This document shows positions 3,620-59,523 of a DNA stretch of 64,000 bases, piece by piece. The stretch's first letter is position 1. Each line of letters opens with the position of its first letter. The notes below the pieces were generated by a model. The model searched no databases, was not told the DNA's origin, and saw nothing but the letters and a program-made list of their open reading frames with translations. The stretch spans positions 1,002-65,001 of the forward strand of contig CAILLM010000003.1 of the NCBI GenBank assembly GCA_903835075.1, in the 5' to 3' direction. Both the position numbers and the translations under genes were made by a program. The stretch is from Candidatus Staskawiczbacteria bacterium (lineage in GTDB: Bacteria; Patescibacteriota; Minisyncoccia; Minisyncoccales; Staskawiczbacteraceae).

Positions 3620-4978
3620 CTACTGGAATTTCAAAAACACATGAACCGCACTTTGATTATTTGGAGCGGAAGAAACCCAGAATGGCCAAAACTTTATTTG
3701 AGTTTTAGAAACTTGGTCCCCCATGTTATTAGTTATTGTTTGTTTTATTTGTTCAGCATTCTCACCCATTAAAGACAACCCAATAGCATTTTTATCAATA
3801 TTTTGATAGGCGCCTAATGAAATATTTAAATTTAAAGTTGCCTTACCCCCGGAAATATCAATAACATTAGAAGAATAATCTACTTTTGTACTACCATCTA
3901 ATAAAGTTTTACCTGTTGGCATTTGTGATGCAATATAACTTTTCACAAAAGTATCAACATCTGATTTTTTGAAAGCCAATGCGCTTGCCTGCACTGTCAC
4001 GCTGTAATTAAAAGTATCAGCTATTGCTCCTGATTTTGATTTTGTTGAAGAATCAGTTACATTAGATAAAATTGCATTATCTAACAAAATATAATCTGCA
4101 GAAATTTGACCTTTTACATCTGCTGTAGCATCTGCTGTTGCTTTTTGAGTTAAAACATTTTTAGCTTCTTGCAAATCATCATCTGTAACTTTTTTAACTT
4201 TTCCAGTATAACCACCTGTCATAGCTTCGGCTGATGATGCAGAAACACTAAAATAAGAAGCAGTTCCTTTTAATCCTGGCACTGAAAAATTAGAAGGAGC
4301 AATGTTATAATCAGTTCCTCCTTCTACGGCTTGTATTTGGACACTAACCGAACCAGGCGTAATTTTACTTCCAACTTTTTTTGCCGCCGGAATTGTAATT
4401 TTTTGTAAAGCAATAAATAATTTTCCAGAATCAGACATAAAGTGAGTGCCTGCTACAAAATTAAAAGCTTTTGGCGGATCATATTTATTATATACTGTTA
4501 TGGTTCCCTGAGATTTTCCCTCATTTGACCCATTACCCGTTGACGGAAAATCTTGCGTAGCTGTTTTAATAGATTGGAAATATTGTGCAGGAATAACTGC
4601 CTTAGCGGTGTCAACAACTGTAATAGACTTGTCAGCAGTTAAGGTTTGTTGCAGACTTAATGTGTCTACTTTTGGCCAAATTGTAATATCAGCTTTTGGT
4701 AATTTAAAAAATAAATATATGGCAACAAATAATACAATTATTAAAATACTAATAAAAATTGGCTTTTTAGCAGACTTTCCTTCTTTTTTTGTTTTAGTTT
4801 GAACGGGCGTTTGTGGTTGAGCTGGTGCGTAATATTGAGTTACAATATTTTTTGACTCTTTTTCAATAGTCAAAGGCACTTTAGTTTTTTTCACTACAGG
4901 CTTTTTTACAACCGGTTTTCTTTCAACCTTTTTGATTGCTATTTTGGGAGGTTTAATATCGTATATTTTTTTTGCCAT
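3620..4978 (-). CDS. Membrane-anchored hypothetical protein (Lys-rich N-terminus, one TM, large extracytoplasmic domain)
   Basis: 452 aa; TM at IFISILIIVLFVAIYLFF. Segment VQIQAVEGGTDYNIAPSNFSVPGL weakly recalls baseplate J/gp47-like families (low confidence). Confidence 0.6.
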   Translation of the reverse strand: MAKKIYDIKPPKIAIKKVERKPVVKKPVVKKTKVPLTIEKESKNIVTQYYAPAQPQTPVQTKTKKEGKSAKKPIFISILIIVLFVAIYLFFKLPKADITIWPKVDTLSLQQTLTADKSITVVDTAKAVIPAQYFQSIKTATQDFPSTGNGSNEGKSQGTITVYNKYDPPKAFNFVAGTHFMSDSGKLFIALQKITIPAAKKVGSKITPGSVSVQIQAVEGGTDYNIAPSNFSVPGLKGTASYFSVSASSAEAMTGGYTGKVKKVTDDDLQEAKNVLTQKATADATADVKGQISADYILLDNAILSNVTDSSTKSKSGAIADTFNYSVTVQASALAFKKSDVDTFVKSYIASQMPTGKTLLDGSTKVDYSSNVIDISGGKATLNLNISLGAYQNIDKNAIGLSLMGENAEQIKQTITNNMGDQVSKTQIKFWPFWVSSAPNNQSAVHVFLKFQ

Positions 4979-21977: not shown

Positions 21978-22394
21978 CTAAATTTTTATCGTAATGTCAA
22001 CACCAGATGGCAAATTTAAATCTCTTAGTGATTCTATAATTTCTGCATTTGGATTTAAAATGTCAATAATTCTTTTATGAACTCTCATTTCAAATTGCTC
22101 TCTTGCATTTTTGTGTACAAAAGAAGATCTGTTCACGGTGTATTTAAGAATTTCTGTTGGAAGTGGTACTGGCCCTGAAACTTCAGCTCCAAATCTGTTG
22201 GCAATATCAATTATCTGCTTGGCAGAATTATCAATAATTTTATGATCATAAGCTTTCAATTTTATGCGAAGCTTAAGACCTGCTATTTCAACAGCCTTAG
22301 GATTTACTTTTGCCTCGTCTTTTCTTGCTTTTCCGCCCAAGGCGGATCCGCCTAGGGCGGACTTTTTTACGATGGTTTTTTTAGTAGCTGGCAT
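21978..22394 (-). CDS. rpsJ: 30S ribosomal protein S10 with about 40 aa N-terminal extension
   Basis: 138 aa; core LRIKLKAYDHKIID; the extension contains a repeat-derived ALGGSALGG. Confidence 0.9.
   Translation of the reverse strand: MPATKKTIVKKSALGGSALGGKARKDEAKVNPKAVEIAGLKLRIKLKAYDHKIIDNSAKQIIDIANRFGAEVSGPVPLPTEILKYTVNRSSFVHKNAREQFEMRVHKRIIDILNPNAEIIESLRDLNLPSGVDITIKI
22333..22362. repeat. Two tandem GC mini-hairpins inside the rpsJ 5' region
   Basis: CCGCC-CAA-GGCGG then TCCGCC-TAG-GGCGGA; translated in-frame as SALGGSALGG. Confidence 0.8.
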
Positions 22395-22395
22395 T

Positions 22396-23592
22396 TTATT
22401 TTACAATTTTGGTTACTACTCCTGCTCCGACTGTTTTTCCGCCTTCTCTAATGGCAAATTTGCTCTTTTCTTCCAAAGCAACAGGTACAATTAATTTAAC
22501 TGTTAATTGAGCTGTATCTCCAGGCATAACCATTTCTGTTCCTGCTGGCAATGTTACGTCTCCTGTAATATCAGATGTTCTGATGTAAAGTTGTGGTTTG
22601 TATCCTGAGAAAAATGGAGTATGTCTTCCACCTTCATCTTTGGACAAAACATAAACTTCTGCTTCAAATTCTGTGTGAGGAGTAATAGAACCTGGTTTGC
22701 AAAGAACTTGTCCTCTTTCAATGTCTTCTTTTTTCAAGCCTCTTAACAAAATTCCAACGTTATCTCCCGCTCTTCCTTCGTCTAAGCTCTTTTGAAACAT
22801 TTCAACAGATACAACAACTGCTTTTTGGGTTGGTCTTAATCCTACAATTTCAATTTCTTCGTTTGGATGGATTACTCCTCTTTCAATTCTTCCTGTTGCA
22901 ACTGTTCCTCTTCCTTCAATTGAAAATACGTCTTCAATGGCCATTGAGAATGGTTTGTCCAATTCTCTGGCTGGTTCAGGAATGTAGTTATCACAAGCAT
23001 CTAACAATTCAACAATTGGCTTGACTGCTTCGTCATCAACTGAAGTTGCGGCCAAAGCTTTTGTAGCAGAACCTCTTATAATTGGAGTTTCATCTCCTGG
23101 GTAGCCATTTTTCTTTAATAATTCTCTGATTTCTGATTCAACCAAATCCAAAATTTCAGGATCATCAACCATATCGCATTTATTCATGAAAACAAGCAAT
23201 GATGGCAAACCAACTTGTCTGGCCAACAAAATGTGTTCTTTTGTTTGTGGCATTGGTCCGTCTGGTGCAGATACTAAAAGAATACCTCCATCCATTTGAG
23301 CGGCTCCTGTAATCATGTTTTTGATGTAGTCGGCGTGACCTGGGCAGTCAATTAAAGCATAGTGTCTTTTTGGTGTTTCACATTCCAAGTGAGTAATAGA
23401 AATGGTAACTCCTCTGGATTTTTCTTCTGGGGAAGCATCAATTTGATCAACGTCTCTGTCGGAAGACTTAAAACCGCGCAATTTTGAAACTTTCATAATT
23501 GCAGCTGACAATGTGGTTTTTCCGTGATCAACGTGACCAATTGTACCAATGTTTACGTGAGGTTTAGACCTCTCAAATTTTTCTGTTGCCAT
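22396..23592 (-). CDS. tuf: Elongation factor Tu
   Basis: 398 aa; [18 protein letters not shown]. Confidence 0.97.
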
Positions 23593-23716
23593 TTTTACTT
23601 TTTTTCTGTCGCCATAGACCTGGCAACAGATATTATTATTTTTTTATTATTTATTTTTTTAACGTATTATAATCTTATTATATTATTTTAAATAAGTCAA
23701 CACCCTTATGCAAACA

Positions 23717-23744
23717 TTGACTTCATTATCAAATTGATTATACT
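23717..23744 (+). promoter_or_regulatory. Sigma70-like promoter for the plus-strand small-gene triplet
   Basis: TTGACT (23717-23722), 16 nt spacer, TATACT (23739-23744). Confidence 0.5.
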
Positions 23745-23791
23745 TTATCTAACGCTGTTTGACAATCTCTAACCATAAACCAGCAATCGCC

Positions 23792-24058
23792 ATGAAAGAA
23801 TACCAAAGAATATCTGCACCGAACGAGAACGCGCTCAACGAGAAACTCGCCATAATGGTTAAGAATGGATGGCAACTATGCCCCGGATGCTATCAATCTG
23901 TCTCATTTAAGATCTACGAGCCATCGCAGGGTAAAAATGTAATAGCGCATTCTCTCTCCGTAATAATGGAGCGGGAAATCCCTGAAAAAAAGATTATCAA
24001 AGCGAAACAACCGACAAAAATTACTACAAAGCAAACCACGAAAGGAAAACGGAAATGA
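23792..24058 (+). CDS. DUF4177-like small protein with basic tail (copy 1)
   Basis: ATG at 23792 (track ORF starts at an upstream TTG). MKEYQRI...LNEKLAIMVKNGWQL...MEREIPE, then KQPTKITTKQTTKGKRK; the stop overlaps the next ATG (ATGA). Confidence 0.55.
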   Translation: MKEYQRISAPNENALNEKLAIMVKNGWQLCPGCYQSVSFKIYEPSQGKNVIAHSLSVIMEREIPEKKIIKAKQPTKITTKQTTKGKRK

Positions 24059-24207
24059 AACATTTTGAATGGGCAACCGATGAATGGGGCCAAACAATAT
24101 GCTTAGAACGGGAAATTCCTGAACCGCCATTAGCTCAACGAGCCGTCAAACCCAAACAACCGGCAAAAATTACTACAAAGAAAACTACGAAAAAAAGTCG
24201 GAAATGA
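24055..24207 (+). CDS. Small ORF, truncated paralog of the flanking DUF4177-like genes (copy 2)
   Basis: 50 aa, my translation: MKHFEWATDEWGQTICLEREIPEPPLAQRAVKPKQPAKITTKKTTKKSRK. Shares the start, the REIPE motif and the basic tail; ATGA overlaps on both sides. Confidence 0.45.
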   Translation: MKHFEWATDEWGQTICLEREIPEPPLAQRAVKPKQPAKITTKKTTKKSRK

Positions 24208-24428
24208 AACGATTCGAAAATGAATGGACGGGCGCGCAAGGTCTCAATGAATTACAGACTATGTGCGATAGGCTAGGGAAGGAAGGCTGGCAAGTTACGG
24301 CTGTATTTGTTAAGACCCTCGGCGAACATGAGTCCGAATGGGGTGCATGGCTCACACGGGAAATTACCGAACCAACGCCCGCTGAGTTACCTACCACTCC
24401 TCCGCCTGCTGGCTATACGGCTGGGTAA
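24204..24428 (+). CDS. DUF4177-like small protein (copy 3)
   Basis: 74 aa; LNELQTMCDRLGKEGWQVTAVF...AWLTREITE fits the DUF4177 pattern; Pro-rich tail. Confidence 0.55.
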   Translation: MKRFENEWTGAQGLNELQTMCDRLGKEGWQVTAVFVKTLGEHESEWGAWLTREITEPTPAELPTTPPPAGYTAG

Positions 24429-24445
24429 GATTTTCAAGTCGCAAT

Positions 24446-24488
24446 GCGCCAAAATTCTGAAATTTCAGAACGAGGCGCTCTTTTTTTT
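24446..24488 (+). terminator. Rho-independent terminator after the small-gene triplet
   Basis: GCGCC...GGCGC stem enclosing TTCTGAAATTTCAGAA, followed by a T-run (8 consecutive T). Confidence 0.6.
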
Positions 24489-24562
24489 ACTTCAAAAAAA
24501 ACACAATCAACTACATAAAAAATTCCAAAATCTCAAATCTCAAAACTGAAAAACTCTTAAAT

Positions 24563-24590
24563 AACTTTTTTGCCACGTGGCAAAAAAGTT
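24563..24590. promoter_or_regulatory. Perfect 28-bp palindrome flanking PaaX-like gene 1 (downstream copy)
   Basis: AACTTTTTTGCCACGTGGCAAAAAAGTT; identical to the copy at 25165-25192. Confidence 0.85.
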
Positions 24591-24591
24591 T

Positions 24592-25131
24592 TCATTTTAT
24601 ACCAAATTTAAATTTAATGCCATCTTGTCCATCTATGTAATCCAATAAACCAAACCTAATATATTTTTTAATTTTAAAAAACTCCACCAAGGACTCAATC
24701 TCATTTTTACACTCATAAGGATATAAAAATATGCTTTCTTGCATTTCATAGAATCCCCCAGTTTTAAGCCTATATACTAGTGCTTTTCTACCCTTTTCGC
24801 ATTCTCTGGGTATATCGAAGGCGACCATTCTCCATTTACCGTCCCATTTCTCTCTTTTATAATTAAGCCGCCTAAATTTATAATTTATTGCCCGTAGAAT
24901 TCCTTTTTCAGTTAAGGAAACCAAAACCAACCCTTCATAATTTTTCTTTTTTTCAATTAATTTTTCTTTCTCCAGGTCGTTCACAGCCGAAGTCAACTGC
25001 TTTCCAGTATAAGAATGAATATCTTTCAACACCAGATTTATAATAAAAAATCTGGCATCACCATGCGCACCCATCTTTTCTCTGCTTAGATAATAAATAT
25101 TCCACAATATCTCCTCCAAAATTTCTCTCAT
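24592..25131 (-). CDS. PaaX-like / Cas2-fold winged-helix regulator (family common in CPR)
   Basis: 179 aa; WDGKWRMVAFDIPRECEKGRKALVYRLKTGGFYEMQESIFLYPY matches the PaaX-type C-terminal pattern; paralog at 48605-49132. Confidence 0.6.
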   Translation of the reverse strand: MREILEEILWNIYYLSREKMGAHGDARFFIINLVLKDIHSYTGKQLTSAVNDLEKEKLIEKKKNYEGLVLVSLTEKGILRAINYKFRRLNYKREKWDGKWRMVAFDIPRECEKGRKALVYRLKTGGFYEMQESIFLYPYECKNEIESLVEFFKIKKYIRFGLLDYIDGQDGIKFKFGIK

Positions 25132-25164: not shown

Positions 25165-25192
25165 AACTTTTTTGCCACGTGGCAAAAAAGTT
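25165..25192. promoter_or_regulatory. Perfect 28-bp palindrome flanking PaaX-like gene 1 (upstream copy, candidate operator)
   Basis: AACTTTTTTGCCACGTGGCAAAAAAGTT, 34 nt upstream of the start codon at 25131. Confidence 0.85.
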
Positions 25193-25276: not shown

Positions 25277-27352
25277 TTATTTGCGTTTGCCGTCGATAAT
25301 TTCTTGAGCTACGTTTGCAGGGACCTGTTCATAACTGCTAAATTCCATATTAAAGCTTGCTCTTCCTTCAGTTAATGACCTAATTGATGTTGCATATCCA
25401 AATGTTTCACTTAATGGAACTGTTGCATCAACAACTTTCATACCTGCTCTTTCTGATGTTTCTTTAATTTGTCCTCTGCGCGAGCTTATGTCGGAAATAA
25501 CTTGGCCGAAGAAATCTTCAGGTGTTACAACTTCCATTTTCATAACAGGCTCTAAAATAACAGGCCTGGCTGCTTTTGCTGCTTTTTGAAAAGCCATACT
25601 TCCGGCAATTTTAAAGGCAAATTCTGAAGAGTCAACTTCGTGGAAAGAACCGTCATATAATGTAACTTCCACGTCAACCATTGGATATCCTGCAACAACT
25701 CCCTTATCCATGGCTTCAACAACTCCTTTTTCAACTGGCTTAATAAATTCTTTTGGAATAGAACCTCCTCTAATTTCATCAACAAATTCAAATCCTGCAC
25801 CTCTTTCTTTTGGTTTAACAGTAAGCATAACGTGTCCATATTGTCCTTTTCCTCCAGACTGTCTAGCATATTTTTCTTCTCCATTTGCTTCAGCAGTAAT
25901 TGTTTCACGGTAAGCTACTTGTGGCTTTCCATAGTTAGCTTCAACGTGAAATTCTCTTCTTAATCTGTCAGCAATAATGTCTAAGTGCAATTCTCCCATA
26001 CCGGAAATAATTGTTTCTCCGGTTTCCAAATCTTCTTTAATTCTAAATGTTGGATCTTCTTCTGTAAGTTTCCTAATAGACATAATAAGTTTTTCTTGAT
26101 CAACTTTTGTCTTAGGCTCAACTCTAATTCCAATAACTGGTTCTGGAAATACAATTTTTTCTAATATAACTGGGGCTGATTTGTCGCACAATGTGTGTCC
26201 CGTGCTGGTTGCTTTTAATCCAACTGTTGCTCCAATTTCTCCTGCATAAATAATATCAAGTTCTTGCCTTTCATCGGCGTGCATTCTTAAAATTCTGGCA
26301 ATTCTTTCTTGTTCACCAGTATTTGCGTTTAATACATATGAACCTTTTTGTAAAAATCCGGAATAAACTCTAAAGAAAGTTAATGTTCCCACATATGGGT
26401 CGGTTGCAATTTTAAAAACCAAGGCAGAAAATGGCTCTGTATCTGACGAGTGTCTTTCTATTACAGCCCCTGTTTTAGGGTCTGTGCCTTGTTGAGCTGG
26501 CACTTCTAATGGAGAAGGCAACAATTCAACAACTGCGTCCAAAATTGTTTGTACGCCCTTATTTTTTAAAGCTGAACCACAAAAAACCGGAATTAATTTA
26601 TAGTTTAAAACTGCTTTTCTTAATACTGCTTTAATTTCTTCGGCGGTTATTTCTTTTCCTTCTAAGAATTTTTCTGTTAAAACATCATCTTCTCCTGCAA
26701 CTTTTTCAATCATTTTCTTATGCCACATATCAGCTTCTGCCTTCCATTCTTCTGGAATTTCTTTTTCAACAACTGTAATTCCTTTTTCTCCTTCAAAAAA
26801 TAAAGCTTTCATTTTCATTAAATCAACAACTCCTTCTAAGTTTTCCTCTAATCCCATTGGAAATGATACTGCAACTGCATTTGGAGTTAATTTTGTTAAA
26901 ATTGATTGAAAACTTTTTTCAAAAGAGGCTCCCATTCTGTCTAATTTGTTTACAAAACAAATTCTAGGCACCATATATTTGTCTGCTTGCCTCCATACTG
27001 TTTCAGATTGTGGTTCCACACCGGCAACTCCATCAAAAACAACAACAGCTCCGTCTAAAACTCTAAGCGAGCGTTGAACTTCAGCTGTAAAATCAATGTG
27101 GCCAGGAGTATCAATAAGGTTGATTTGATGGTCTCTCCAATACATGGTTGTGGCAGCAGAAGTAATTGTTATACCCCTTTCTCTTTCCTGCACCATCCAG
27201 TCCATAGTGGCTTCTCCTTCGTGAACTTCTCCAATTTTGTGAGAAACACCGGTATAAAAAAGTAAACGCTCGGAAAAAGTTGTTTTTCCGGCGTCAATGT
27301 GAGCAATAATACCTATATTTCTTAAAGATTCTAAAGGATGTTGTCGAGCCAT
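25277..27352 (-). CDS. fusA: Elongation factor G
   Basis: 691 aa; [18 protein letters not shown]. Confidence 0.97.
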
Positions 27353-27397
27353 ATAATACTTAATTTATAATTTTTAATTTAAAATTTCTGATTTACT

Positions 27398-27510
27398 AGC
27401 GAGGCAGTGAATTCGAAGCGTACCCTGCAGGCCCGCCCAGGGCGGGCCGAAGCCTGAGTGAGTTGCGCGCTGGCGCAACGAACGCTAGCGGAGAATTCAC
27501 TGCCGAGCGA
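27398..27510. repeat. Composite GC-rich palindromic element (B-type core) in the rpsG-fusA spacer
   Basis: AGCGA-GGCAGTGAATTC...GAATTCACTGCC-GAGCGA; internal hairpins GGCCCGCC-CAG-GGCGGGCC and TTGCGC-GCTG-GCGCAA; ends 2 nt from the rpsG stop. Confidence 0.9.
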
Positions 27511-29444: not shown

Positions 29445-29515
29445 GTCGGGATACTGAGATTTGAACTCAGACTAAATCCACCCCATGGACTCGTGCTACC
29501 GTTACACTATATCCC
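29445..29515 (-). tRNA. tRNA-Pro (anticodon GGG)
   Basis: Hand-folded 71 nt cloverleaf: acceptor CGGGATA/TATCCCG, D stem GTGT/GCAC, anticodon stem AGTCC/GGATT with loop AT-GGG-GT, T arm CTGAG-TTCAAAT-CTCAG, discriminator A, no encoded CCA. Confidence 0.85.
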
Positions 29516-29555
29516 GAAATATTTTATTTTATATTATAACAATATTGTTCTAATA

Positions 29556-29655: not shown

Positions 29656-30399
29656 ATGAAACCTCGCATCGCATTCTTTTCGGCGATAATCGCCATGCTT
29701 ATTTCTTTGGCTAGCGCCGCAAGCGTTGTGCTTTCTGGGGTGCCCGCGTATCTAGAACCAAAGGGGTGTGCATCCTCTGCAATTCTTTCCATCCTCGGAT
29801 ACTACGACTTCAGATACGGTGCCACTGGACTGCTTCCAGGCATTGCCGTGGCCGACATCTATTTGACCAGTAATGTCACCGTACCACTTCAAAACATTGC
29901 ACTGGCCTGTAATACTGACGTCTCGGGCAACACAGATACGGGCAACATCGGCCCAGGCCTAGTAAATTATGCAGCCACGGTTGGATATAATTTCCAGGTC
30001 AGCATGTCTGGTAATGTTGTGCCTAGTAACCCCCATGGAAGCCAAATATCGGTAACTACTGCCTATGACATGGTTGCAACGGCTATTACCAATAATCAAC
30101 CAGTCTTACTACGAGTTGACTCAAATGCCGATGGCGTAGCAGACCATCTTGTTCCTGTGTTTGGTTATGACCCTAATTACCAAGAACTAGGCAAATCTTT
30201 CGCCTTCTACACCGGTAATAATGAATCGGAAACCGTCATTTCTTGGTTGCCATTCCAAGCCATTAGCGTTGGTGTAAGCTACGGGGTATCAAATGTGGCT
30301 ATCGTTATTCCCCCCACCTTCGTGCCCGAACCCTCGTCAGCTATTATCGTTCTCTTTCTTGGTACGTTGATGGCTTTTCGTCATAAACGCACCGCCTAA
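29656..30399 (+). CDS. Secreted papain-like (peptidase C39-like) protein with a C-terminal PEP-CTERM sorting signal
   Basis: 247 aa; signal peptide. Candidate catalytic Cys in KGCASSAILSILGYY and His in DHLVPVFGYD. C-terminus VPEPSSAIIVLFLGTLMAFRHKRTA is PEP, TM, basic. G+C clearly above the surroundings. Confidence 0.7.
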   Translation: MKPRIAFFSAIIAMLISLASAASVVLSGVPAYLEPKGCASSAILSILGYYDFRYGATGLLPGIAVADIYLTSNVTVPLQNIALACNTDVSGNTDTGNIGPGLVNYAATVGYNFQVSMSGNVVPSNPHGSQISVTTAYDMVATAITNNQPVLLRVDSNADGVADHLVPVFGYDPNYQELGKSFAFYTGNNESETVISWLPFQAISVGVSYGVSNVAIVIPPTFVPEPSSAIIVLFLGTLMAFRHKRTA

Positions 30400-52127: not shown

Positions 52128-52138
52128 AAATTAAATGT

Positions 52139-52250
52139 AGCGAGGCAGTGAATTCAAAGCGTACCCTGCAGGCCCGCCCTGGGCGGGCCGAAGCCTGAGT
52201 GAGTTGCGCGCTGGCGCAACGAACGCTAGCGGAGAATTTACTGCCGAGCG
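52139..52250. repeat. Composite GC-rich palindromic element (B-type core)
   Basis: Near-identical to 27398-27510 (AGCGA-GGCAGTGAATTC ... GAATTTACTGCC-GAGCG); ends 6 nt from the upstream stop. Confidence 0.9.
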
Positions 52251-55425: not shown

Positions 55426-55431
55426 AAAATT

Positions 55432-55561
55432 AGCGAGGCAGTGAATTCGTAGCGTGCCCTGCAGGCAATTTTGCTTGGTCCGCCGATAGGCGGAAAATTG
55501 CCGAAGCCTGAGTGAGCCCGCGCTGGCGGGCGAACGCTAGCGAAGAATTCTCTGCCAAGCG
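55432..55561. repeat. Composite GC-rich palindromic element (B-type scaffold with substituted hairpins)
   Basis: AGCGA-GGCAGTGAATTC ... GAATTCTCTGCC-AAGCG; hairpins GGCAATTTT..TCCGCC-GATA-GGCGGA..AAAATTGCC and CCCGC-GCTG-GCGGG. Confidence 0.9.
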
Positions 55562-57517: not shown

Positions 57518-58726
57518 CTATTTTATAATTCCGCCACCCAACACCTGGTTGCCTTTATAGAAAACTGCTGACTGGCCTGAAGTAATTGCGCGGTCTGATT
57601 TTTTAAAAACTAACTTACCGTCTTTATATAAAGTTGCTTTTTGCAAAGGTGCCCTATAACGCGTGCGAGCATCTACCAGCACTGGAAAAGCTTCTGGTTT
57701 ATTTATCCAATTTATGTTTACAATTTTTGCTTCTTTCACTGCCAAATCTTTTTCTGTACCAACATAAATAATATTTTTCTTTATGTCTTTTTTAACTACA
57801 AAATAAGGTCCGTGCCCATCTTTAATGTCTAAACCATGCCTTTGGCCAATTGTGTAGTAATAAACGCCATCGTGCTTACCTATTTTTCTGCCGTCTAAAG
57901 AAATTATTTCTCCTATTTTTGGCTTTATATACATTTTTAGGAAAGCCTTCATATCAAACTGCCCAATAAAGCAAACCCCTTGGCTGTCTTTTTTCTCAGC
58001 ATTTTCTAATTTAAATTTTTTAGCTAATTTTCTAACTTCCGGCTTTGTAAGCCCACCAATTGGAAATAAGATTTTGTTTAACTGATTTTTCTTAATTGCA
58101 TACAAAAAATATGTTTGATCTTTATTTTGGTCAACAGCCTTTAGCAAGCGAGGCAAAGCAATGGAGCGAGGCAATGAACTTTTTCGAGAAGAAGGTGCCC
58201 CGTAGAGAGGCTCTCCTCGCAGAAAAAGTTTATTGCCGAGCGAAGTTTGCTGGCGGGCGAACGCTAGCGAAGAACTCAGCGCCGAGCGATTTTTGTCGAG
58301 CGTAGTCTGCGCATAGTGGCCAGTTGCCACAAAATCAAAACCTTCTTTCATGGCCCTATCAAAAAAATAACCAAATTTTATAATTTTATTGCACATTACG
58401 TCGGGGTTTGGCGTAATTCCCTTTTTATATGAATCGATCATATATTTGCCCACTTCTGCCTCATATTCTTTAGAATAATCCCAAGTTAAAAAAGGGATTT
58501 GCAATCTAGCACAAGCTCGCATAGCATCCTGCCTGTCTGTTTTCCAAATGCACTCTTTACCTAAAATTTCTGGAGCCCATTGCTTCATATAAATTCCAAC
58601 AACATCAACCTGCCTGCCGGCAGGCAGGGACCAGCCCTTTTTTAGTAGTGCAGCCGAAACTGAGCTGTCTACACCACCAGACATCGCCACGGCAATTCTT
58701 ATTTTTTGTTTACTGCTCTTATGCAT
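57518..58726 (-). CDS. mnmA: tRNA 2-thiouridine(34) synthase MnmA carrying two repeat-derived inserts
   Basis: 402 aa; PP-loop AMSGGVDSS, ATGHYA, KDQTYFLY. Extra ~45 aa lie between the last two motifs. Confidence 0.9.
   Translation of the reverse strand: MHKSSKQKIRIAVAMSGGVDSSVSAALLKKGWSLPAGRQVDVVGIYMKQWAPEILGKECIWKTDRQDAMRACARLQIPFLTWDYSKEYEAEVGKYMIDSYKKGITPNPDVMCNKIIKFGYFFDRAMKEGFDFVATGHYAQTTLDKNRSALSSSLAFARQQTSLGNKLFLRGEPLYGAPSSRKSSLPRSIALPRLLKAVDQNKDQTYFLYAIKKNQLNKILFPIGGLTKPEVRKLAKKFKLENAEKKDSQGVCFIGQFDMKAFLKMYIKPKIGEIISLDGRKIGKHDGVYYYTIGQRHGLDIKDGHGPYFVVKKDIKKNIIYVGTEKDLAVKEAKIVNINWINKPEAFPVLVDARTRYRAPLQKATLYKDGKLVFKKSDRAITSGQSAVFYKGNQVLGGGIIK
58144..58302. repeat. Composite GC-rich palindromic element inserted in-frame in mnmA
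   Basis: AGCAAGCGA-GGCAAAGC..-AGCGA-GGCAATGAACTTTTTC ... GAAAAAGTTTATTGCC-GAGCGA-..GCTGGCGGGCGAACGCTAGCGAAGAACTCAGCGCC-GAGCGA. Confidence 0.85.
58609..58628. repeat. 20-bp perfect GC palindrome in-frame in mnmA
   Basis: CCTGCCTGCCGGCAGGCAGG, translated LPAGRQ. Confidence 0.9.
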
Positions 58727-59428: not shown

Positions 59429-59523
59429 TGAGGCAATAAATTTTTTGAAGCGAGGCAGTGAATTCGAAGCGTACCCTGCAGGCCCGCCCTGGGCGGGCCG
59501 AAGCCTGAGTGAGCCCGCGCTGG
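59429..59523. repeat. Composite GC-rich palindromic element, right half missing
   Basis: ..GAGGCAATAAATTTTTTGA-AGCGA-GGCAGTGAATTCGAAGCG...GAGTGAGCCCGCGCTGGA, ending 2 nt from the iscS stop codon. Confidence 0.85.

Follow-up and report, generated by a model that had tools for sequence, protein, structure and literature searches.

Three DUF4177-Like Mini-Genes in a Probable Promoter-Driven Cargo Slot between tuf and fusA of Staskawiczbacteria-Like Patescibacteria

Introduction

In typical bacteria, tuf is found immediately after fusA. In the 64,000-nt stretch of a Candidatus Staskawiczbacteria bacterium analyzed here (assembly GCA_903835075.1, contig CAILLM010000003.1; this whole stretch is called the window, and positions are counted along it), tuf (22396–23592) and fusA (25277–27352), both on the minus strand, are separated by a gap of 1.68 kb, in which lie three small plus-strand open reading frames (ORF1, ORF2, and ORF3) and one minus-strand gene of 179 aa. 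What are these three mini-genes, and how did they come to occupy this position? A first-pass annotation, made from the sequence, had proposed that they were acquired DNA or an internally duplicating array of small proteins, and had not recorded the minus-strand gene, which is PaaX-like. The genome belongs to the Patescibacteria, and its nearest species representatives are a Candidatus Staskawiczbacteria metagenome-assembled genome (MAG), with 89% identity in elongation factor G (EF-G), and a Patescibacteria MAG from Hainich groundwater (85%). We consider it reasonably probable that the ORFs encode three paralogous mini-proteins of the DUF4177 family, organized as one short operon, in a conserved and promoter-driven cargo slot between tuf and fusA that characterizes a Staskawiczbacteria-like clade of Patescibacteria. 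The classical rpsL-rpsG-fusA-tuf operon is interrupted, in this single group of ultra-small bacteria, by a small slot of varying content that has a conserved promoter of its own. What is new is a divergent, tandemly expanded branch of the widespread DUF4177 family; for now, the locus is a curiosity of one lineage and does not represent a new mechanism or system.

Organization of the Mini-Gene Array

The features of the region are listed in table 1. The lengths and coordinates of the three ORFs agreed with the first-pass annotation, as did the ATGA overlaps at both junctions (24055–24058 and 24204–24207). The ATG start of ORF1 was picked by homology to the family N-terminus MKxWEY; gene callers start this ORF at a TTG (23759), which gives 99 aa. 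The motif R-E-I-x-E is invariant across the three proteins, in the form REI(P/T)E, and the common start MK(E/H/R)(Y/F)E that had been proposed for them was found in ORF2 (MKHFE) and ORF3 (MKRFE) but not in ORF1, where MKEYQ deviates at position 5. In addition, the basic tail KQPxKITTKxTTKxxRK is common to ORF1 and ORF2 (E = 4e-6; tails KQPTKITTKQTTKGKRK and KQPAKITTKKTTKKSRK), which are thus basic-tailed copies, and the net charges are +9.6 for ORF1, +5.6 for ORF2, and -5.4 for ORF3. An AAGGA precedes the ORF2 start, within the tail codons of ORF1. The array has the overlapping stop and start codons, the single promoter and terminator, and the common strand that are used to recognize operons, and the translational coupling itself is predicted from these features. 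As had been noted, the array runs against its neighbors: 59 of the 62 long ORFs of the window are on the minus strand.

Table 1. Positions of the Mini-Genes, Their Putative Control Elements, and Repeats in the Window
Feature	Position	Strand	Description
tuf-directed P1 (predicted)	23672–23700	-	TTGACT-17-TAAGAT; consensus scan
Array promoter (predicted)	23717–23744	+	-35 TTGACT, 16-nt spacer, -10 TATACT; 10 of 12 consensus positions; within block TTGATTATACT
tuf-directed P2 (predicted)	23737–23765	-	TTGTCA-17-TATAAT; 11 of 12 positions, best promoter match of the region
ORF1	23792–24058	+	88 aa from ATG; core residues 1–65 near neutral, basic K/T-rich tail (+10)
ORF2	24055–24207	+	50 aa; short N-terminus, last β-strand, REIPEPP, ORF1-type basic tail
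ORF3	24204–24428	+	74 aa; acidic canonical DUF4177-type protein, Pro-rich tail
Tandem-duplication footprint	23997–24218	+	Direct repeat; both copies of the 73-nt repeat
Array terminator (predicted)	24446–24488	+	Intrinsic; stem-loop GCGCC…UUCUGA-AAUU-UCAGAA…GGCGC, then U8
Palindrome, copy 1	24563–24590		28 nt, perfect, AACTTTTTTGCCACGTGGCAAAAAAGTT; right-hand edge of variable cargo
PaaX-like gene	24592–25131	-	179 aa; winged-helix N-terminus and Cas2-like PaaX_M (Pfam PaaX_M, E = 2.2e-16)
Palindrome, copy 2	25165–25192		Identical to copy 1; upstream of the PaaX-like gene
~113-nt repeat	27397–27509, 52138–52250, 55431–55561, 58249–58292, 59449–59523		At least five full or partial copies

Genuine Genes Shaped by Local Duplication

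A hidden Markov model (HMM) built from family members outside the window matched 2 of its 454 six-frame ORFs, namely ORF3 (E = 1.6e-9) and ORF1 (E = 4e-5). At least nine contigs from several samples span both junctions of the region at 99–100% identity, with mismatches at contig tips alone; because many contigs from different samples cover these junctions identically, they are no assembly artefact, and the chimeric junction that the first-pass annotation had envisaged as a refutation was not found. Taken together, the HMM match and the contig coverage indicated that the mini-genes are neither chance ORFs nor the product of an assembly junction. The suspicion that they might be either, to which the Pfam scores below threshold and the many contigs terminating in or near the region could lead, is effectively refuted, since the independent HMM matches these ORFs alone among the 454 and homologous genes are present in relatives.

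The mismatches at contig ends are an observation in their own right. In four contigs (L001, L002, L003, and L093) the last 100–250 nt diverge from the window by 3–30% and the remainder is identical; these ends are assembler tips that have strayed into related strains, which can give a false appearance of mosaic recombination. An island 100% identical amid strain flanks with 3–7% divergence (L001–L003), pointing to a sweep or transfer, was considered and rejected, since the mismatches all lie in the last 100–250 nt of each contig.

Within the array, the two copies of a 73-nt direct repeat (23997–24069 versus 24146–24218, 84% identical) run from the tail across the stop/start junction into the N-terminus that follows; ORF2 therefore arose by local duplication. 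It is 54% identical to the C-terminal part of ORF1, has neither the helix nor the GW segment, and matches the family profile at residues 13–29 only (the last strand and REIPEPP; E = 2.8e-5). The earlier idea of an internal duplication with an internally deleted middle copy was thus borne out, and ORF2 is a truncated or chimeric copy, made by that duplication together with an internal deletion.

The G+C content of the array exceeds 50% in parts, as had been counted by hand, with a peak of 0.51 at 24200–24399 and values of 0.26–0.38 nearby. G+C at third codon positions (GC3) is 0.449 in ORF1 and 0.467 in ORF3, compared with 0.248 ± 0.050 over 62 genes of the window, which is ~4 standard deviations (SD) higher; base composition, one of the marks by which genomic islands are recognized, is thus atypical. 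A strand effect behind the high G+C was ruled out, since the G+C content is strand-symmetric and a plus-strand ORF at 84–485 has a GC3 of 0.20.

A Divergent Branch of the DUF4177 Family

Standard family searches gave little for these ORFs. In Pfam, ORF3 matched DUF4177 (PF13783) at 13.1 bits (E = 0.12), short of the gathering score of 25 bits, and neither ORF1 nor ORF2 matched DUF4177; ORF1 matched DUF1737 (PF08410) over residues 1–29 at 16 bits (E = 0.011), below the gathering score of 24 bits. Nothing significant was found for the three ORFs in PADLOC, NCBIfam, and PHROGs, and word-indexed homology searches with ORF3 and ORF1 returned only the queries themselves. A full HMMER search with a three-sequence profile retrieved a protein (P0006) with MKRYEYE…GKDGW…LEREIPEP, and once genes found in synteny in relatives had been added to the profile, a broad family emerged, characterized by MKKWEY…GxxGWEL…FKREIPEP followed by a variable tail. 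In the alignment of this family (A3), 16 of the 27 members match PF13783 (best E = 7.5e-13); E3, G26, W27, and R61 (ORF1 numbering) are invariant, and M1, K2, E62, and I63 are nearly so.

We compared the ORFs by hhalign with a family profile that contained no window sequences. ORF3 aligned over its full length (96.5% probability, E = 9.5e-10) and ORF1 over residues 3–66 (E = 4e-4). In addition, the AlphaFold2 model of ORF1, with a predicted local distance difference test (pLDDT) score of 90.4, has a β-α-β-β arrangement (strand 2–9, helix 12–24, strand 28–43, and strand 48–62). Among the viral structures of BFVD, it resembles small phage proteins, including DUF4177 and DUF1737 proteins (best target-normalized template modeling score 0.81, E = 3.3e-4). 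It also weakly resembles uS10 and Alba, though not significantly. These profile and structure matches indicated that the name DUF4177-like, given in the first-pass annotation, is right, although the scores stay below the formal Pfam threshold. By sequence, ORF3 can be assigned with confidence to the DUF4177 subfamily, and ORF1 is a divergent member of it, for which a β-α-β-β fold is confidently modeled; ORF2 is a fragment of a DUF4177-type protein.

The DUF4177 family (PF13783), which includes YjzH of Bacillus subtilis and PEG 446 of Clostridium tyrobutyricum, resembles the mini-genes in its length of 50–100 aa and its β-α-β-β core; its motifs are MKxWEY, GxxGWE, and FKREI, and it is found in chromosomes, phages, and integrative and conjugative elements (ICEs). 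The copies of the window differ from it in their motifs (MKEYQ or MKRFE, GWQ, and MEREI or LTREI), in scoring under the Pfam cut-off, in the β-hairpin of ORF1, which is lengthened with CPGC, in the K/T-rich basic tails of ORF1 and ORF2, and in their arrangement as an ATGA-linked tandem array at a fixed tuf-fusA site.

A Variable Slot between tuf and fusA in Relatives

The first-pass annotation had asked whether relatives have tuf directly after fusA; the gap was occupied in every clade member that we examined. Family genes share their position and orientation, always run opposite to tuf and fusA, and number one, three, or four per locus. In particular, L008 and L094 (EF-G of L008 89% identical to that of the window) carry four mini-genes of the family, L009 and L096 (EF-G 85%) carry one gene of 101 aa, and L109 (EF-G 80.5%) and L111 carry one gene each; L109, L110, and L111 came from a metagenome scan for the conserved promoter block. 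The cores of these genes are ~30–50% identical over partial alignments, compared with 80–97% for EF-Tu and EF-G. In the four-gene array of L094 the net charges are +8.7, +15.6, +5.7, and -1.4, with basic proteins first and an acidic one last, as in the window, and the single-gene loci encode acidic proteins; by its last position and acidic charge, ORF3 is the likely counterpart of the single gene of these relatives. A more distant Paceibacterota genome has a different gene, of 195 aa, in the tuf-fusA gap.

One member of the clade holds other cargo. In L110, a contig from the Trout Bog Lake hypolimnion with an EF-G 96.8% identical to that of the window, the shared promoter precedes a single unrelated ORF (3651–3878) for a basic 75-aa protein, MSAKRRKNILNRRPV…, whose GC3 is 0.42, compared with 0.29–0.31 in its tuf and fusA. 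The possibility that it is a strongly diverged DUF4177 protein was discarded (hhalign probability 0.1), and it has no match to any family. Nucleotide homology between L110 and the window ends at 23768, just past TTTGACAA, and restarts at 24598, and the 28-nt palindrome beside the L110 cargo is 100% identical to that of the window.

Since genes of one family occupy the same site in the same orientation in relatives, both slot and family were already present in the ancestor of the clade. Moreover, because the promoter and the palindrome are shared while the cargo differs, we concluded that this site is a conserved slot whose variable cargo is driven by a promoter and which faces the promoters of tuf. 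The mini-gene array is therefore no foreign island confined to the genome studied here. It is thus unlikely that this genome alone acquired the array by recent horizontal transfer into the str operon, for example from a phage, as the first-pass annotation chiefly proposed. Such an acquisition would account for the GC3 of ~4 SD over the window genes, for the lack of these genes in the closest relative, L110, and for the frequency of the family in phages, and one short scaffold (L005, described below) joins the 3' two-thirds of the array (642 nt, 100% identical) to a phage-type macro-domain gene. However, four other lineages of the clade carry the family at this site and in this orientation, and of these lineages three were shown to share the promoter block and two the terminator; because the terminator is shared with the DUF4177-bearing relatives and not with L110, L110 looks like the replaced state. 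In addition, no integrase, tRNA, target-site duplication, or flanking direct repeats were found at the borders, where the neighbors are tuf, the PaaX-like gene, and fusA, and the sole tRNA found lies at 29445–29516. Nor was the site empty in close relatives, L110 alone having other cargo, and L005 is a single short scaffold whose upstream 1003 nt are unmatched in the window. The annotation had held that relatives with the same island in native composition would speak against acquisition: the island was present, whereas the mini-genes of relatives are likewise somewhat GC3-enriched. What remains of the acquisition idea is turnover, as seen in the unrelated cargo of L110, the copy numbers of one, three, and four, and the occurrence of the family in phages.

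Flexible genomic islets are hotspots of gene turnover between conserved core genes. The slot resembles them in its conserved flanks (tuf with the promoter block on one side, the palindrome with fusA on the other), varying content, and atypical composition; it differs in that it is very small (0.4–0.8 kb), that its cargo lies behind a conserved resident promoter and is usually of the same mini-protein family, and that no mobility gene was identified. It is also not an integron-like array as far as could be seen: no recombinase was found, and the palindrome flanks the PaaX-like gene and does not lie between the mini-genes.

Conserved Control Region and Terminator

The near-consensus promoter and the terminator that had been ascribed to the array were both recovered (TTGACT-16-TATACT, and a stem-loop followed by eight T). 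The -10 hexamer of the array promoter overlaps, on the opposite strand, that of P2. The block TTGAC-N12-TTGATTATACT-N-TA-N6-GCT-N-TTTGACAA is kept in three diverged lineages, in the alignment of which TTTGACAA and ATTATA (P2) as well as AGTCAA and ATCTTATTATA (P1) are invariant; the control region comprising the array promoter, P1, and P2 is thus conserved though the cargo genes of the three lineages have strongly diverged. Used as a search pattern in metagenomes, the block retrieved four further loci, all with the same architecture. The promoter activity at 23717–23744, and a competition between the array promoter and P2, are inferred from these sequence features. The promoter block is common to three relative lineages, and the terminator to both of the two that were checked (homologous sequences in L009/L096 and in L094); the predicted RNA fold of 24425–24600 has z = -5.2, and no RNA family was found in the region in Rfam.

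The PaaX-Like Gene and Its Palindromes

The PaaX-like gene is convergent with the mini-gene array, and its matches to Cas2 are weak. The palindrome at this gene (AACTTTTTTGCCACGTGGCAAAAAAGTT / TTTTTTGCCACGTGGCAAAAAA) flanks it on both sides, an arrangement also seen in L094 and L110. The gene is present in L094 and L110 and absent from L008, L096, and L109; in particular, the PaaX module is a 730-nt insertion or deletion between L008 and L094, which are otherwise 95–96% identical. Loci without the PaaX-like gene and palindrome still vary in their cargo. The second copy of the palindrome is a candidate operator and/or fusA terminator, and the PaaX module with its two copies may be an operator pair or a small mobile cassette.

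Phage Connections of the Family

All three of the wider family members that lie on long contigs are in phage-like regions with replication or early genes: one with an SNF2 helicase, AAA_24, and an MCM-primase, another with a 5'-3' exonuclease, an intein-bearing B-family DNA polymerase, and gyrase B, and the third among small ORFs that follow one another on the same strand, together with an HD-domain phosphohydrolase. Several wider family members match PHROG families, and a back-translated FKREIPEP pattern found one true family member only in IMG/VR. DUF4177 genes have been listed in halovirus PhiH1 and in ICEs (PMC6210493, PMC8895235).

A possible direct link between the array and a phage was seen in L005 (ERZ18626337 scaffold_41754, 1–1645; 1.6 kb), in which 642 nt are 100% identical to window positions 23932–24573. 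The first 1003 nt of the scaffold, which have no match in the window, hold a gene for a macro-domain protein of phage type (phrog_335, E = 7e-37; 2584 phage records matched) together with small ORFs; the junction falls inside ORF1, giving a 53-aa variant, MRLNIGYKLAENKNVIAHS…. L005 is a singleton contig, and a related viral contig was looked for and not found; it may be a phage-borne copy or a scaffold chimera.

Possible Roles of the Mini-Proteins

We propose that a single transcript would run from ~23751 to the terminator at 24488, and that ORF2 and ORF3 would be translated by termination-reinitiation at the ATGA overlaps, giving a roughly fixed ratio of two basic proteins to one acidic protein. 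By the precedent of sP36 and DUF1737, the β-α-β-β cores could serve as small oligomerizing or binding modules, whereas the K/T-rich tails might touch a polyanionic partner, that is, RNA, the ribosome, or DNA. The raised GC3 would stem from repeated exchange or recombination at the slot.

Several points weigh against this proposal. A Shine-Dalgarno sequence is not visible ahead of ORF1; no ORF of the array attains the gathering score in Pfam or has a match in NCBIfam or PADLOC; the ORF1 model has no significant match among solved structures (PDB, E > 0.03). Moreover, the promoter block could be conserved for tuf alone, the explanation of the raised GC3 by exchange is a conjecture, and the phage link of this array hangs on one 1.6-kb contig (L005), which could be chimeric.

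Our best guess, by analogy with sP36 and with the DUF1737 capsid decorator, is that these are small binding or adaptor proteins. In Methanosarcina mazei, sP36 (61 aa) bridges GlnK1 and AmtB1 (PMC10714827); it is similarly small and, as the sole relative with a worked-out role (NF053529, Sp36_fam), may serve as a model for a small adaptor. The Sp36_fam model has 50 positions and a cut-off of 50 bits; the relatives P0030 (29.4 bits) and P0008 (23 bits) score below it, and it does not match the ORFs of the window. Neither amtB nor glnK was flagged by family library searches among the genes examined, most window ORFs being unannotated. The N-terminal DUF1737 domain of phage phi24B gp84 forms capsid-decorating hexamers (bioRxiv 10.64898/2026.04.10.717836). 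DUF1737 (PF08410) combines one helix with three antiparallel strands, oligomerizes, and binds another protein; the ORF1 match to it is weak (16 versus 24 bits), and the capsid context is missing at the window locus. Since early and replication modules of phages also contain the family, and its turnover at this site is fast, the likeliest role, judged from sequence and genomic context, would lie in phage-host interplay and not in housekeeping; the fixed position facing the tuf promoters leaves a translation-linked role possible. If the mini-proteins are adaptors in phage-host conflict or in translation, the locus would be a compact natural series for the evolution of mini-proteins, in which the copy number is one, three, or four, the tails are basic or acidic, and an unrelated ORF has taken their place in one case.

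The translation-linked role can be stated more strongly, with the mini-proteins as dedicated modulators of EF-Tu, EF-G, or the ribosome, whose genes would be retained beside tuf and fusA and regulated jointly with the tuf-S10 operon by the overlapping divergent promoters. The conserved position, the -10 hexamers that overlap face to face, and the basic tails are consistent with this, as are the recovery of YjzH in an RNA interactome, where it was captured with RNA (bioRxiv 10.1101/2025.03.21.644579), the weak and nonsignificant resemblance of the fold to uS10 and Alba, and the gene adjoining P0006, whose N-terminus resembles an ABC-type ATPase (judged by eye, with no family library). Yet L110 fills the same slot with an unrelated ORF, the other contexts of the family are phage replication modules and not translation genes, matches in the PDB stay at E > 0.03, and the sequences evolve far too quickly for partners of highly conserved factors, which makes dedicated modulators doubtful and quite unlikely.

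PEG 446, a 66-aa DUF4177 protein, has been claimed to have bacteriocin-like activity (PMC11322243), and the mini-genes are small, overlap by ATGA, and encode proteins of opposite charges. They might accordingly be taken for antibacterial peptides or a toxin-antitoxin-like set, which we consider highly improbable: no N-terminal hydrophobic signal or leader was seen when the sequences were read without a signal-peptide predictor, neither a transporter nor an immunity gene is adjacent, models of known anti-phage defence and toxin-antitoxin systems in PADLOC and Pfam match none of the mini-proteins, and the antibacterial activity of PEG 446 comes from one report. A dedicated expression slot can also be imagined, in which swappable phage-type mini-protein cassettes, exchanged among relatives and their phages, are expressed from the conserved promoter, which interlocks with that of the main ribosomal-protein operon. 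The PaaX/Cas2-like protein and the palindromes would then control or mediate the exchange, and the mini-proteins would act on the translation machinery during infection; this combination is very unlikely to hold as a whole.

Other Features of the Window

A GC-rich (~54%) intergenic repeat of ~113 nt with terminal inverted arms GGCAGTGAATTC…GAATTCACTGCC is scattered over the window (table 1), with one copy between fusA and rpsG. A strong RNA fold is predicted for it, with a free energy of -59.9 kcal/mol (z = -4.8), and it has no Rfam match.

A second plus-strand compositional outlier lies at 29656–30399 (GC 0.48, GC3 0.46), adjoining tRNA-Pro(ggg) at 29445–29516; at the corresponding place in the relative L096, no ORF of this size was called. 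In the 247-aa protein encoded there, a stretch at the N-terminus is hydrophobic, and the C-terminus weakly resembles PEP-CTERM (NF038129, E = 4e-5, below cut-off).

Finally, ribosomal protein S10 (21978–22394, minus strand) has 138 aa, compared with 108 aa in the Paceibacterota relative L010, owing to an N-terminal extension of roughly 30 aa that is rich in K, A, and G (MPATKKTIVKKSALGGSALGGKARKDEAK…).

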